Positions 2,365-37,566 of a DNA stretch of 64,000 nt are shown here, one piece after another. Under the pieces are notes generated by a model. That model was not told the origin of the DNA and ran no database searches. It worked only from the letters and a program-made list of their open reading frames with translations. Source of the stretch: Escherichia coli (GTDB lineage: Bacteria > Pseudomonadota > Gammaproteobacteria > Enterobacterales > Enterobacteriaceae). The stretch lies in assembly GCF_003991155.1 (NCBI RefSeq), contig NZ_CP031293.1; one strand, written 5' to 3'. A program made the translations under genes and the position numbers. Each line of letters starts with the position of its first letter. The stretch's first letter is position 1.

Positions 2365-3867
2365 ATGACGATTTTTGATAATTATGAAGTGTGGTTTGTA
2401 ATTGGCAGCCAGCATCTGTATGGCCCGGAAACCCTGCGTCAGGTGACGCAACATGCGGAACACGTTGTTAATGCACTGAATACAGAAGCGAAGTTGCCCT
2501 GCAAACTGGTGCTGAAACCGCTGGGCACCACGCCGGATGAAATCACCGCTATTTGCCGCGACGCGAATTACGACGATCGTTGCGCTGGTCTGGTGGTGTG
2601 GCTGCACACCTTCTCCCCGGCCAAAATGTGGATCAACGGCCTGACCATGCTCAACAAACCGTTGCTGCAATTCCACACCCAGTTCAACGCGGCGCTGCCG
2701 TGGGACAGCATCGACATGGACTTTATGAACCTGAACCAGACCGCGCATGGCGGTCGCGAGTTCGGCTTCATCGGCGCGCGTATGCGTCAGCAACATGCCG
2801 TCGTTACCGGTCACTGGCAGGATAAACAAGCCCATGAGCGTATCGGCTCCTGGATGCGTCAGGCGGTCTCTAAACAGGATACCCGTCATCTGAAAGTCTG
2901 CCGTTTTGGCGATAACATGCGTGAAGTGGCGGTCACCGATGGCGATAAAGTTGCCGCACAGATCAAGTTCGGTTTCTCCGTCAATACCTGGGCGGTTGGC
3001 GATCTGGTGCAGGTAGTGAACTCCATCAGCGATGGCGATGTTAACGCGCTGGTCGATGAGTACGAAAGCTGCTACACCATGACGCCTGCGACACAAATCC
3101 ACGGCGAAAAACGACAGAACGTGCTGGAAGCGGCGCGTATTGAGCTGGGGATGAAGCGTTTCCTGGAACAAGGTGGCTTCCACGCGTTCACCACCACCTT
3201 TGAAGATTTGCACGGCCTGAAACAGCTTCCTGGTCTGGCCGTACAGCGTCTGATGCAGCAGGGTTACGGCTTTGCGGGCGAAGGCGACTGGAAAACTGCC
3301 GCCCTGCTTCGCATCATGAAGGTGATGTCAACCGGTCTGCAGGGCGGCACCTCCTTTATGGAGGACTACACCTATCACTTCGAGAAAGGCAATGACCTGG
3401 TGCTCGGCTCCCATATGCTGGAAGTCTGCCCGTCGATCGCCGCAGAAGAGAAACCGATCCTCGACGTTCAGCATCTCGGTATTGGCGGTAAAGACGATCC
3501 TGCCCGCCTGATCTTCAACACTCAAACCGGTCCAGCCATTGTCGCCAGCCTGATTGATCTCGGCGATCGTTACCGTCTGCTGGTTAACTGCATCGACACG
3601 GTGAAAACACCGCACTCCCTGCCGAAACTGCCGGTGGCGAATGCGCTGTGGAAAGCGCAACCGGATCTGCCAACTGCTTCCGAAGCGTGGATCCTCGCTG
3701 GTGGCGCGCACCATACCGTTTTCAGCCATGCGCTGAACCTCAACGATATGCGCCAGTTCGCCGAGATGCACGACATTGAAATCACGGTGATTGATAACGA
3801 CACCCGCCTGCCAGCGTTTAAAGACGCGCTGCGCTGGAACGAAGTGTATTACGGGTTTCGTCGCTAA
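2365..3867 (+). CDS. araA: L-arabinose isomerase
   Basis: 500-aa ORF beginning [24 protein letters not shown]; 10 bp after araB. Confidence 0.97.
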
Positions 3868-3869
3868 GT

Positions 3870-3975
3870 AGCCGCATCAGGTGTGTAACGCCTGATGCGA
3901 CGCTGACGCGTCTTATCAGGCCTACACGCTGTGATTTTGTAGGCCGGATAAGCAAAGCGCATCCGGCATTGTTTT
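3870..3975. repeat. REP/BIME palindromic units between araA and araD
   Basis: GCCTGATGCGACGCTGACGCGTCTTATCAGGCCTAC followed by the inverted copy GTAGGCCGGATAAGC...GCATCCGGCA. Confidence 0.85.
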
Positions 3976-4035
3976 CCCCCTCGCCCCTCTGGGGAGAGGG
4001 CCGGGGTGAGGGGAAACGACCTCTCAGGAGTCAAC

Positions 4036-4731
4036 ATGTTAGAAGATCTCAAACGCCAGGTATTAGAAGCCAATTTGGCGCTGCCAAAACATAACCTGGT
4101 CACGCTCACATGGGGCAACGTCAGCGCCGTTGATCGCGAGCGCGGCGTCTTGGTGATCAAACCTTCCGGCGTCGATTACAACGTCATGACCGCTGACGAT
4201 ATGGTCGTGGTCAGCATCGAAACCGGTGAAGTGGTTGAAGGAACGAAAAAGCCCTCCTCCGACACGCCAACTCACCGGCTGCTCTATCAGGCATTCCCGT
4301 CCATTGGCGGCATTGTGCACACACACTCGCGCCACGCCACCATCTGGGCGCAGGCGGGTCAGTCGATTCCAGCAACCGGTACCACCCACGCCGACTATTT
4401 CTACGGCACCATTCCCTGCACCCGCAAAATGACCGACGCAGAAATCAACGGTGAATATGAGTGGGAAACCGGTAACGTCATCGTAGAAACCTTCGAAAAA
4501 CAGGGTATCGATGCGGCGCAAATGCCCGGCGTCCTGGTCCATTCTCACGGCCCATTTGCATGGGGCAAAAATGCCGAAGATGCAGTGCATAACGCCATCG
4601 TGCTGGAAGAGGTCGCTTATATGGGGATATTCTGCCGTCAGTTAGCGCCGCAGTTACCGGATATGCAGCAAACGCTGCTGGATAAACACTATCTGCGTAA
4701 GCATGGTGCGAAGGCATATTACGGGCAGTAA
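4036..4731 (+). CDS. araD: L-ribulose-5-phosphate 4-epimerase
   Basis: ORF-track frame 4006-4731; start placed at the internal Met of [32 protein letters not shown], giving 231 aa; class II aldolase/adducin family. Confidence 0.93.
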
Positions 4732-4734
4732 TGA

Positions 4735-4750
4735 CTGTATAAAACCACAG
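4735..4750. promoter_or_regulatory. LexA (SOS) box upstream of polB
   Basis: CTGTATAAAACCACAG fits CTG-N10-CAG, about 55 bp upstream of the polB start. Confidence 0.8.
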
Positions 4751-4761
4751 CCAATCAAACG

Positions 4762-4791
4762 AAACCAGGCTATAATCAAGCCTGGTTTTTT
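4762..4791 (+). terminator. Rho-independent terminator after araD
   Basis: AAACCAGGC / TATAATCAA / GCCTGGTTT hairpin followed by a T6 run. Confidence 0.75.
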
Positions 4792-4805
4792 GATGGAATT
4801 ACAGC

Positions 4806-7157
4806 GTGGCGCAGGCAGGTTTTATCTTAACCCGACACTGGCGGGATACCCCGCAAGGAACCGAAGTTTCCTTTTGGTTAGCGACGGACAACGGGCCGTT
4901 GCAGGTTACGCTTGCGCCGCAAGAGTCCGTGGCGTTTATTCCCGCCGATCAGGTTCCCCGCACCCAGCATATTTTGCAGGGTGAGCAAGGCTTTCGCCTG
5001 ACGCCGCTGGCGTTAAAGGATTTTCATCGCCAGCCGGTGTATGGCCTTTACTGTCGCGCCCATCGCCAGTTGATGAATTACGAAAAGCGCCTGCGTGAAG
5101 GTGGCGTTACCGTCTACGAGGCCGATGTGCGCCCGCCAGAACGCTATCTGATGGAGCGGTTTATCACCTCACCGGTGTGGGTCGAGGGTGATATACGCAA
5201 TGGCGCTATCGTTAATGCCCGTCTGAAACCGCATCCCGACTATCGTCCGCCGCTCAGGTGGGTTTCTATTGATATTGAAACCACCCGCCACGGTGAGCTG
5301 TACTGCATCGGCCTGGAAGGTTGCGGGCAGCGTATCGTTTATATGCTGGGGCCAGAGAATGGCGACGCCTCCGCGCTCGATTTTGAACTGGAATACGTCG
5401 CCAGTCGCCCGCAGCTACTGGAAAAACTCAACGCCTGGTTTGCGACTCACGATCCTGATGTGATCATCGGCTGGAACGTGGTGCAATTCGATCTACGAAT
5501 GCTGCAAAAACATGCCGAGCGTTATCGTATTCCGCTGCGGCTGGGGCGCGATAACAGTGAGCTGGAGTGGCGCGAGCACGGCTTTAAAAACGGCGTCTTT
5601 TTTGCCCAGGCCAAAGGGCGACTGATTATCGACGGTATCGAGGCGCTGAAATCCGCGTTCTGGAATTTCTCTTCATTCTCGCTGGAAACCGTCGCTCAGG
5701 AGCTATTAGGCGAAGGAAAATCTATCGATAACCCGTGGGATCGGATGGACGAAATTGACCGCCGTTTCGCCGAAGATAAACCTGCGCTGGCAACTTATAA
5801 CCTGAAAGATTGCGAGCTGGTCACCCAGATCTTCCACAAAACTGAAATCATGCCGTTTTTACTCGAACGAGCGACGGTTAACGGCCTGCCGGTAGACCGC
5901 CACGGCGGTTCGGTGGCAGCGTTTGGTCATCTCTATTTTCCCCGTATGCATCGCGCTGGTTATGTCGCGCCTAATCTCGGCGAAGTGCCGCCGCACGCCA
6001 GCCCTGGCGGCTACGTGATGGATTCGCGACCTGGGCTTTATGATTCGGTGCTGGTGCTGGACTACAAAAGCCTGTACCCGTCGATCATCCGCACCTTTCT
6101 GATTGATCCCGTCGGGCTGGTGGAAGGCATGGCGCAGCCTGATCCAGAGCACAGCACCGAAGGTTTTCTCGACGCCTGGTTCTCACGGGAGAAACATTGC
6201 CTGCCGGAGATTGTGACTAACATCTGGCACGGGCGCGATGAAGCCAAACGTCAGGGTAATAAGCCGCTTTCGCAGGCGCTGAAGATCATTATGAATGCCT
6301 TTTATGGCGTGCTTGGCACCACCGCCTGCCGCTTCTTCGATCCGCGCCTGGCGTCGTCGATCACCATGCGTGGTCATCAGATCATGCGGCAAACCAAAGC
6401 GTTGATTGAAGCGCAGGGCTACGACGTGATCTACGGCGATACCGACTCAACGTTTGTCTGGCTGAAAGGCGCACATTCGGAAGAAGAAGCGGCGAAAATC
6501 GGTCGTGCACTGGTGCAGCACGTTAACACCTGGTGGGCAGAAACGTTGCAACAGCAACGGCTGACCAGCGCATTAGAACTGGAGTATGAAACCCATTTCT
6601 GCCGTTTTCTGATGCCAACCATTCGTGGAGCCGATACGGGCAGCAAAAAGCGCTATGCCGGGCTGATTCAGGAGGGCGATAAACAGCGGATGGTGTTTAA
6701 AGGGCTGGAAACCGTGCGCACCGACTGGACGCCGCTGGCCCAGCAGTTTCAGCAGGAGCTGTACCTGCGTATCTTCCGCAACGAGCCATATCAGGAGTAC
6801 GTCCGCGAAACCATCGACAAACTGATGGCGGGCGAACTGGATGCGCGGCTGGTTTACCGTAAACGCCTTCGCCGTCCGCTGAGCGAATATCAGCGTAATG
6901 TGCCGCCTCATGTACGCGCCGCTCGCCTTGCCGATGAAGAAAACCATAAGCGCGGTCGCCCCTTGCAATATCAGAACCGCGGCACCATTAAGTACGTATG
7001 GACCACCAACGGCCCGGAGCCGCTGGACTACCAACGTTCACCACTGGATTACGAACACTATCTGACCCGCCAGCTACAACCCGTGGCGGAGGGAATACTC
7101 CCTTTTATTGAGGATAATTTTGCTACACTTATGACCGGGCAACTTGGGCTATTTTGA
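4806..7157 (+). CDS. polB: DNA polymerase II (family B)
   Basis: 783-aa ORF beginning [21 protein letters not shown]; contains the YGDTDS polymerase motif. Confidence 0.96.
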
Positions 7158-7320: not shown

Positions 7321-10227
7321 ATGCCTTTTACACTTGGTCAACGCTGGATCAGCGATACAGAAAGCGAATTGGGACTTGGAACCGTTGTCGCGGTGGATGC
7401 GCGAACTGTCACTTTACTTTTCCCATCTACTGGTGAAAACCGTCTGTACGCACGCAGTGATTCCCCCGTGACCCGCGTGATGTTCAACCCTGGTGATACC
7501 ATTACCAGCCATGACGGCTGGCAGATGCAAGTCGAAGAAGTAAAAGAAGAAAATGGCTTGCTGACCTATATCGGTACTCGCCTGGATACTGAAGAGTCCG
7601 GCGTAGCCCTGCGTGAAGTTTTCCTTGATAGCAAACTGGTGTTCAGCAAACCGCAGGACCGTCTGTTTGCCGGGCAGATTGACCGTATGGACCGCTTTGC
7701 GCTGCGTTATCGCGCGCGTAAGTATTCCAGCGAACAGTTCCGTATGCCGTACAGCGGCCTGCGCGGTCAGCGTACCAGCCTGATCCCCCATCAGCTCAAC
7801 ATCGCTCATGATGTTGGTCGCCGCCACGCGCCGCGCGTCCTGTTGGCTGACGAAGTGGGTTTAGGGAAAACCATTGAAGCCGGGATGATCCTGCATCAGC
7901 AACTGCTCTCTGGCGCTGCTGAACGTGTGCTGATTATCGTCCCGGAAACCTTACAGCATCAGTGGCTGGTAGAAATGCTGCGCCGTTTCAACCTGCGCTT
8001 TGCTCTGTTTGATGATGAGCGTTATGCCGAAGCTCAGCACGATGCTTACAACCCGTTCGACACCGAACAGCTGGTGATTTGCTCGCTGGATTTTGCCCGT
8101 CGTAGCAAACAGCGTCTGGAACATCTCTGTGAAGCCGAATGGGACCTGCTGGTGGTCGATGAAGCCCATCACCTGGTGTGGAGCGAAGATGCGCCGAGCC
8201 GCGAATATCAGGCCATTGAACAACTGGCAGAGCACGTGCCGGGCGTTCTGCTGCTGACCGCAACCCCGGAACAACTGGGGATGGAAAGCCACTTCGCCCG
8301 TCTGCGTCTGCTGGACCCGAACCGTTTCCACGATTTTGCGCAATTCGTTGAAGAGCAGAAAAATTATCGTCCGGTTGCGGACGCCGTTGCCATGCTGCTG
8401 GCAGGTAACAAACTGAGCAATGATGAACTGAACATGCTCGGTGAGATGATCGGCGAGCAGGATATCGAGCCGCTGTTGCAAGCAGCAAACAGCGACAGCG
8501 AAGATGCACAGAGCGCCCGTCAGGAGCTGGTTTCGATGCTGATGGATCGCCACGGCACCAGCCGCGTGCTGTTCCGTAACACGCGTAACGGTGTGAAAGG
8601 CTTCCCGAAACGCGAGCTGCACACCATTAAGCTGCCGCTGCCGACACAGTATCAGACGGCTATTAAAGTCTCCGGCATTATGGGCGCACGCAAAAGTGCG
8701 GAAGACCGCGCTCGCGATATGCTCTACCCGGAGCGTATTTATCAGGAATTTGAAGGTGATAACGCCACCTGGTGGAACTTCGATCCGCGCGTTGAGTGGC
8801 TGATGGGCTACCTGACCAGCCATCGCTCTCAGAAAGTGCTGGTGATCTGTGCCAAAGCTGCCACTGCGCTGCAACTGGAGCAGGTACTGCGCGAACGTGA
8901 AGGTATTCGCGCCGCGGTGTTCCACGAAGGCATGTCGATAATCGAACGTGACCGCGCTGCCGCCTGGTTTGCTGAAGAAGACACCGGTGCGCAGGTACTG
9001 CTGTGCTCGGAAATCGGTTCTGAAGGACGTAACTTCCAGTTCGCCAGCCACATGGTGATGTTTGACCTGCCATTCAACCCGGATCTGCTGGAGCAGCGTA
9101 TTGGGCGTCTGGATCGTATCGGCCAGGCGCACGATATTCAGATCCATGTGCCTTATCTGGAGAAAACTGCTCAGTCGGTGCTGGTGCGCTGGTATCACGA
9201 AGGTCTGGATGCATTCGAGCACACCTGCCCGACCGGACGCACTATTTACGATAGCGTATACAACGATCTGATTAACTATCTGGCTTCACCGGATCAAACC
9301 GAAGGCTTTGACGATCTGATCAAAAACTGCCGTGAGCAACATGAAGCGCTGAAAGCACAGCTGGAACAGGGTCGTGACCGCCTGCTGGAAATCCATTCCA
9401 ACGGTGGCGAAAAAGCCCAGGCACTGGCAGAAAGCATTGAAGAGCAGGATGACGATACCAACCTGATCGCCTTCGCCATGAATCTGTTCGATATTATCGG
9501 TATCAATCAGGACGATCGCGGCGACAACATGATCGTACTGACGCCGTCCGATCATATGCTGGTGCCGGACTTCCCTGGCTTGTCGGAAGATGGCATCACC
9601 ATCACCTTTGATCGTGAAGTGGCGCTGGCGCGTGAAGATGCGCAGTTTATTACCTGGGAACATCCGCTGATCCGCAACGGTCTGGATCTGATCCTTTCTG
9701 GCGATACCGGTAGCAGCACGATTTCACTGTTGAAAAACAAAGCGTTGCCGGTAGGTACGCTGTTGGTGGAACTGATTTACGTGGTCGAAGCCCAGGCTCC
9801 GAAGCAGTTGCAGCTCAACCGCTTCCTGCCACCGACGCCGGTACGTATGCTGCTGGATAAAAACGGCAACAACCTGGCGGCGCAGGTGGAGTTTGAAACC
9901 TTTAACCGTCAGCTTAACGCGGTTAACCGTCACACCGGCAGCAAACTGGTTAACGCCGTGCAGCAGGATGTTCACGCTATCCTTCAGCTGGGTGAAGCAC
10001 AGATCGAGAAATCTGCCCGTGCACTGATTGATGCCGCACGTAACGAAGCCGACGAAAAACTGTCTGCCGAGCTGTCTCGTCTGGAAGCTCTGCGTGCAGT
10101 GAACCCGAACATTCGTGACGACGAACTGACCGCCATTGAGAGCAACCGTCAGCAGGTAATGGAAAGCCTGGATCAGGCAGGCTGGCGTCTGGATGCCCTG
10201 CGTTTGATCGTTGTAACGCATCAGTAA
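7321..10227 (+). CDS. rapA: RNA polymerase-associated Swi2/Snf2 ATPase RapA (HepA)
   Basis: 968-aa ORF beginning [25 protein letters not shown]; Walker A LGKT and DEAH box. Confidence 0.96.
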
Positions 10228-37170: not shown

Positions 37171-37566
37171 TTAACGACGCATACTCTTTGACAACATCAT
37201 CTGCCACTTCTGCTCGCGGTTAAGTTCCGTGAGCGGAACGGCAGGAATACGCGGCGTCTTTCTTACGCCGACTAATTTTTCCCGACTGTTATTGCGCAGG
37301 CGCGCGTAAATTTGCTCATCGATATCGACCACTTTAACCAGTCGCTGACACTGGCATCCCCGCCCTTCCAGCTTATTAGGGATCATCTTAACTTCGCAGC
37401 TTATTTCTGTGACTTCCGACAGAATATAAGTCAGGGTATTAACCGCCTTGCTGTGTTCAATATCGAAATGAATAGAGATCTCTCTTGCTATCACCCACCG
37501 ATTTTCAGCCATCATCCATTCGGCGATTAACAAGTAGAGTGGTTTTTCAACATATCCTTCACACAT
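37171..37566 (-). CDS. caiF: Transcriptional activator of the cai/fix operons
   Basis: ORF-track frame 37171-37671; start placed at MCEGYVEKPLYLLIAEWMMAENRW, giving 131 aa. Confidence 0.92.
   Translation of the reverse strand: MCEGYVEKPLYLLIAEWMMAENRWVIAREISIHFDIEHSKAVNTLTYILSEVTEISCEVKMIPNKLEGRGCQCQRLVKVVDIDEQIYARLRNNSREKLVGVRKTPRIPAVPLTELNREQKWQMMLSKSMRR

Follow-up and report, generated by a model that had tools for sequence, protein, structure and literature searches.

In the LexA-repressed promoters of the gamma-proteobacterial SOS regulon, like those of recA, uvrA, sulA, umuDC and dinB, one CTGT-N8-ACAG operator overlaps the core promoter; they are repressed by occlusion and relieved of repression by RecA-stimulated cleavage of LexA. 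The promoter of Escherichia coli polB (dinA), the gene for DNA polymerase II, belongs with these and yet stands apart from them in three respects: its operator occupies -48 to -33, at the upstream edge of the promoter, instead of covering the -10 element or the start, its LexA box is a relatively poor match to the consensus (13/20), and the promoter is nested in the terminator of the preceding operon, araBAD. This nesting was reportedly already described in 1990-91, in the original polB/dinA papers that gave the polB sequence. The terminator resembles canonical intrinsic terminators in its GC-containing stem of 9-11 bp, its loop of 7-9 nt, a run of six U residues and an upstream A-tract, but unlike them has a loop and a 3' arm that double as the -10 element and the start of the next gene. 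At this same locus in K-12, RegulonDB/EcoCyc catalogue the polB promoter, its LexA box and a rho-independent terminator of araBAD. The polB transcription start there is at 65803.

The layout, the transcription start, the LexA box and the terminator are therefore already known E. coli biology, and the start can be found in public genome-wide tables. A literature search on the araBAD terminator and polB returned only strain genotypes or papers in which polymyxin B is abbreviated PolB. Only two points in what follows are modestly new: across genera the hairpin is retained conditionally, and its 5' arm is conserved independently of the hairpin. No new question of any size is opened. The locus nonetheless serves as a compact textbook case in which two signals share their bases. 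It illustrates how a highly inducible catabolic operon can be kept from driving a DNA-damage polymerase, and how a downstream gene escapes a terminator when its transcription starts within the terminator 3' arm; the comparison between species provides a clean natural control that separates the terminator and promoter functions. There is also a practical side: araBAD or araD deletions, which are frequent among laboratory strains, and engineering of the ara locus can modify the LexA box, 5' arm or -10 element or take them out altogether, and hence would change polB expression. Our reading, held with high confidence, is that this is a dual-use region in which the intrinsic terminator of araBAD is nested with the LexA-controlled promoter of polB.

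The araD-polB locus

The window, by which we mean the whole stretch of 64,000 nucleotides analysed here, is E. coli DNA: its segment from about 4400 to 5200 is 100% identical to several non-K-12 strains, in which the genes are annotated araD and polB, and is present in 5400 of 5426 complete genomes. This segment aligns with MG1655 without gaps and in the opposite orientation, such that the K-12 coordinate equals 70586 minus the window coordinate. The genes around the region of interest are the following.

654-2354: araB (list of open reading frames)
2365-3867: araA (list of open reading frames)
4036-4731, plus strand: araD, L-ribulose-5-phosphate 4-epimerase, last gene of araBAD (open reading frame, K-12 and RefSeq annotation)
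4806-7157, plus strand: polB, DNA polymerase II, 783 aa, with a GTG start at 4806 (open reading frame and annotation)
7321-10227: rapA (list of open reading frames)

The araD translation opens with MLEDLKRQ at 4036 and ends at a TAA stop (4729-4731), and PF00136 and PF03104, both DNA polymerase B domains, are present in polB homologues. The araD-polB gap of 74 bp is the same length as in K-12 (65781-65854), from which it differs by no indels and three substitutions (4775, 4798 and 4801). The first of these, A in the window versus C in K-12, falls at the fifth position of the -10 hexamer and gives the window the consensus TATAAT where K-12 has TATACT, with otherwise no difference of substance from K-12 polB. 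No Rfam family matched between 4500 and 5000 at E <= 1. The original prediction had placed the araD stop at 4731, a LexA box at 4735-4750, a hairpin at 4762-4791 and the polB start at 4806, and all four coordinates are correct when checked against the sequence.

As a side observation, the spacer between araA and araD (3868-4035) is made of REP-type palindromes and is 116 nt shorter than that of K-12, which has extra tandem copies; in their place the window has a GC-rich CCCCTCTGGGGAGAGGGCCGGGGTGAGGGG element. Some Enterobacter loci (e.g., L031, L034 and L038) have similar elements in the interval from araD to the LexA box.

The signals in and around the gap, which the following sections take up in turn, are listed here with promoter positions relative to the polB transcription start.

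4735-4750: LexA operator CTGTATAAAACCACAG, -48 to -33 (sequence, conservation)
4748-4753, plus strand: inferred -35 hexamer CAGCCA, -35 to -30, with a 17-bp spacer, matching TTGACA at 3/6 positions
4751-4761: spacer from operator to hairpin, 11 bases of 0.05-0.4 bits, kept in length and variable in sequence
4762-4770, plus strand: terminator 5' arm AAACCAGGC, also promoter -21 to -13 (G-14, C-13)
4771-4779, plus strand: terminator loop
4771-4776, plus strand: -10 hexamer TATAAT (TATACT in K-12), -12 to -7, inside the terminator loop
4780-4788, plus strand: terminator 3' arm GCCTGGTTT, running into the U-tract of six T at 4786-4791; together also polB -3 to +9
4783 (K-12 65803), plus strand: polB transcription start, the T of GCC-T-GG (two independent published genome-wide maps)
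4783-4805, plus strand: polB 5' UTR of 23 nt, UGGUUUUUUGAUGGAAUUACAGC (sequence)

The LexA operator

The box CTGTATAAAACCACAG has what is expected of a LexA-type operator, a 16-bp palindromic CTGT-N8-ACAG core with an A/T-rich centre. Extended to the 20-mer GACTGTATAAAACCACAGCC (4733-4752), it shares 13 of 20 positions with the LexA consensus TACTGTATATATATACAGTA, and a search with the 20-mer consensus gave no match within 3 mismatches. The bare CTGT-N8-ACAG pattern occurs twice in the 64-kb window versus 0.69 expected, a count of two or more being reached in 17 of 100 shuffles, and, taken alone, is not significant against chance. Its second copy, CTGTGACTTCCGACAG at 37407-37422, lies within a 166-aa minus-strand open reading frame, has a G/C-rich centre and is most likely a chance match.

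Could the motif ahead of polB be a functionless coincidence as well? The expected frequency, the clearly non-functional copy at 37407 and the imperfect fit to the consensus all lend themselves to that argument, but conservation already refutes it, and we consider it practically dismissed. We compared 80 polB loci obtained from a scan that took one genome per species, with PolB proteins 78-97% identical and sequences aligned by the -10 anchor; they span Escherichia, Citrobacter, Salmonella, Enterobacter, Klebsiella, Raoultella, Kosakonia, Kluyvera, Lelliottia, Pluralibacter and other genera, and a protein homologue search for more distant Enterobacterales yielded only relatives of at least 84% identity and nothing beyond the 80 loci. 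The motif CTGTAYAAAANNNCAG is found at a fixed position in all 80, across more than 15 genera, with 1.8-2.0 bits in its CTGT and CAG columns. Moreover, in E. coli EC42405 (L082), where a 1.4-kb insertion (1070-2490) separates araD from polB, the upstream DNA has been replaced and homology to the window restarts only at the 5' arm, yet the 20-nt spacing is preserved, with a different, Citrobacter-like LexA-box allele, CTGTACAAAATATCAG. Finally, polB is listed as an SOS regulon gene in a review, and published expression data record its SOS induction, with a rise of up to 2.4 log2-fold after ciprofloxacin. We hold the LexA box to be real because of this conservation and published biology, and not because the pattern is rare.

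The araBAD terminator

A perfect 9-bp inverted repeat, AAACCAGGC (4762-4770) and GCCTGGTTT (4780-4788), begins 31 nt past the TAA of the co-directional araD, where the terminator of the operon would be expected, and leads directly into a run of six T, the arrangement that defines an intrinsic terminator. Its RNA folds at -16.2 kcal/mol, with 11 pairs and a 7-nt loop (z = -5.3), and none of 200 shuffled sequences folded as well. A -16 kcal/mol stem followed by U6 predicts efficient termination, and the ara transcript is predicted to be released at 4791 +/- 2 (about 4789-4793); the 3'-end tables of Adams et al. (2021) hold no araD 3' end and, in this region, only an internal polB site.

A simple terminator scan reported the hairpin on the minus strand only. 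It missed the plus-strand hairpin because the stem it builds runs on into the T-run, and we therefore regard the minus-strand-only call as an artefact, the plus-strand fold being the stronger (-16.2 versus -15.4 kcal/mol). The antisense strand (4788-4762, minus) does fold, at the latter energy and with an interrupted T-run (TTTCGTTT), and was called terminator-like by the scan; no antisense gene needs a terminator there. Both hairpin arms contain a Dcm site, CCAGG at 4765-4769 in the promoter spacer and CCTGG at 4781-4785 spanning the transcription start.

The polB promoter and its start site

The start of polB has been mapped twice. SMRT-Cappable-seq assigns operon b0060, that is, polB alone, a start at 65803 on the reverse strand (Yan et al., 2018; PMC6131387, Supplementary Data 2), and an independent map gives the same position with a 23-nt 5' UTR (Kim et al., 2012; PMC3415461, Table S1), listing the sequence upstream of it as GACTGTATAAAACCACAGCC...GGCTATACTCAAGCCT. 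In Klebsiella pneumoniae the start is one base further along the equivalent arm, after ...AACCAGGCTATAATCAGGCCT-G, with a 24-nt 5' UTR (PMC3415461). Read counts in that study are low, 2 in E. coli and 4 in Klebsiella (PMC3415461), as expected since polB is repressed; the ROSE supplement has no polB entry. U is an unusual start base, and the true start could be the G at 4784. In the window, 65803 corresponds to 4783, inside the terminator 3' arm and 33 nt past the LexA box, so that the 3' arm covers polB -3 to +6 and the U-tract +4 to +9. The proposal that the polB promoter overlaps the 3' end of the ara transcript is thereby supported: the main start lies within the terminator and not upstream of the LexA box within araD.

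TATAAT precedes this start by 7 nt, within the range of 5-9 nt at which a -10 element is expected. No recognisable -35 element stands 16-18 bp further upstream, CAGCCA matching the consensus at only 3/6 positions; its first three bases are the last three of the LexA box, at the promoter-proximal edge, so that operator and promoter overlap by 3 bp. A consensus promoter scan of 4300-5300 called no promoter, which follows from the weak -35 given that the scan demands at least 4/6 matches in this hexamer, and we reject the empty scan as evidence of absence. Promoters with a weak -35 are common, and their membership of the sigma-70 class is unaffected. With so weak a -35, the polB promoter must rely on its -10 and the context upstream of it. 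The leader has a weak Shine-Dalgarno-like GGA (4795-4797) and is without significant structure (fold z -1.1); the weak -35, the weak ribosome-binding site and the GTG start fit a low basal level of Pol II.

A -10 of the form TATA[A/C]T is invariant in the 80 loci, the polymorphism at 4775 being the sole variation: this strain and 70 of the 80 species have TATAAT, and K-12, E. whittamii and 8 others have TATACT. Sigma-S prefers the TATACT form of the -10, together with C at -13 and a dispensable -35. From -14 to -4, K-12 reads GCTATACTCAA, which resembles a sigma-S-preferred -10; most genera and the window have TATAAT, and direct use of this promoter by sigma-S is putative. According to published work cited in a review, full expression of polB requires RpoS, a positive regulator, and such a dependence would fit the K-12 -10, GCTATACT.

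A second start assigned to polB, at K-12 65946 (window 4640, inside araD), is supported by 2 reads and would give a 166-nt leader (PMC3415461). A possible -10, GATATT, lies ahead of it at 4626-4631, and, if the start is real, its RNA would run for about 150 nt from the 3' end of araD through the LexA box into the terminator. Together with the co-directional arrangement of araD and polB, 74 bp apart, this start might suggest that the hairpin is a leaky leader attenuator, with polB expressed mainly by read-through from araBAD or from within araD, and LexA acting as a roadblock. We judge this very unlikely. The start with the 23-nt leader is in both maps, and SMRT-Cappable-seq gives polB as a single-gene operon, listing no transcript from 65946 (PMC6131387). 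An invariant TATAAT at a fixed distance from both the LexA box and the mapped start is the signature of a promoter, and the stability of the stem with its U6 tract argues for efficient termination in place of leakage. The 4640 start, moreover, leaves the picture of a terminator nested with a promoter unchanged, because its transcripts would meet the terminator.

One sequence, two signals

How the same bases might serve both signals can be sketched from their layout. As RNA transcribed from araBAD, 4762-4791 would form the stem-loop with its six U residues, an intrinsic terminator that ends the ara transcript and would shield polB from arabinose-induced transcription. As double-stranded DNA, the same bases would constitute the core of the polB promoter, the loop supplying the -10 and the 5' arm the spacer, in which the G-14/C-13 context would suit sigma-70 and sigma-S alike. 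Since polB mRNA starts in the 3' arm and is without the 5' arm, it cannot form the terminator.

A LexA dimer bound at -48 to -33 would cover the poor -35 and, we infer, exclude RNA polymerase sterically; in the SOS response, RecA-stimulated LexA cleavage would relieve this repression of polB. Transcripts of the ara operon would cross the operator and the promoter and end at about +9, so the ara and polB RNAs would overlap by some 9-10 nt (about 4783 to 4792). It is possible that polymerases arriving from the induced ara operon transiently hinder polB initiation or displace LexA. We also weighed UTP-sensitive reiterative transcription along the T-run (+4 to +9) and set it aside, as G-G at +2/+3 should hold the nascent RNA in place; it is further disfavoured by the loss of the T-run in several hairpin-less lineages.

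Conditional retention of the hairpin

Loci where araD is no longer the upstream neighbour allow the two functions to be told apart. We call a locus araD-adjacent when the araD stop lies at most 150 nt from the LexA box, as in 55 loci, with either 0-20 nt or 40-140 nt of REP-like repeats between them. The hairpin and T-run are intact in 54 of these 55, as against 7 of 20 loci with araD further off, behind another gene or a longer spacer (Fisher p = 8e-9, uncorrected for phylogeny). Six or more lineages have lost the hairpin: Salmonella, the Citrobacter freundii group, C. sedlakii, Pseudocitrobacter, the Phytobacter group and UBA5654. Superficieibacter (L028) has lost the hairpin too and stands outside these counts, no araD being found upstream. 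In every hairpin-less locus, the LexA box and the -10 persist. The stem is kept with araD and thus acts like the terminator of araBAD, while the promoter is kept everywhere and does not depend on the stem.

Two types of gene are interposed where araD is displaced. One encodes a DUF4751 protein on the opposite strand (Salmonella and Citrobacter; L009, L012, L017 and L024); the other encodes a co-directional DUF218 protein (L019, L040 and L068) and ends 5-38 nt before the LexA box or overlaps it. Pseudocitrobacter and Phytobacter have lost the hairpin despite a co-directional gene directly upstream, which indicates that insulation is not universally required. Covariation in the stem is limited to one clean compensatory change from A-T to G-C (L071) and a few G-U pairs, and is uninformative because the stem is otherwise nearly invariant.

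The insertion in EC42405 mentioned above carries three genes on the opposite strand, one of the SMI1/KNR4 family and two hypothetical. There, araD has acquired a different terminator, and the araBAD-type hairpin ahead of polB is retained; this strain shows the same modularity of terminator and promoter within a species.

From the LexA box to the -10 there are 20 nt in 79 of 81 sequences, the other 2 having 21 nt, and the sequence of the 11 bases between operator and hairpin is free to vary, a combination of fixed length and free sequence that is expected from promoter-operator geometry.

Conservation of the 5' arm beyond pairing

The two arms of the hairpin are not equally conserved. AACCAGG in the 5' arm carries 1.7-2.0 bits versus 1.1-1.8 bits for the 3' arm, and in the 14 loci without a functional hairpin AACCAGG is complete (7/7) in 12, while the 3' arm falls to 2-6 of 7 matching positions.

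The 5' arm is conserved beyond the needs of pairing, and the 9-bp inverted repeat is perfect and has the -10 at its centre, which invites the thought that the palindrome acts chiefly at the level of DNA, either as an operator bound by a dimeric regulator or by forming a cruciform, dependent on supercoiling, over the -10 and polB start, with termination incidental. This appears highly improbable, because a U6 tract after a stem that begins 31 nt past a stop codon is the canonical terminator layout, and, for an operator with two half-sites in particular, because the 3' arm decays exactly where araD is non-adjacent whereas the 5' arm stays. The 5' arm block probably has a sequence-specific role of its own in the promoter.

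Several explanations for the asymmetry of the arms were considered and set aside. Dcm methylation or a bias from very-short-patch repair was rejected as the cause, since both arms had CCWGG. A sigma-54 element in the 5' arm and loop has the GG-N10-GC spacing in its favour, but agrees with the consensus at just 5 of 12 positions and loses its GC where the 3' arm decays. In a comparison by hand of the 5' arm and loop with sigma-E and IHF motifs, neither fitted.

More tentatively, and in our estimation rather doubtfully, AAACCAGG (4762-4769, about -22 to -14) may be a cis-element of the polB promoter that came first, with the araBAD terminator secondary, its complementary 3' arm having evolved around the pre-existing promoter. 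Such an element might be an RNA polymerase contact that offsets the LexA-buried -35, a determinant of sigma-S selectivity, or the site of another regulator. Between two Salmonella subspecies, the spacer differs at 8 of its 11 positions while AAACCAGGTTATAAT is identical.
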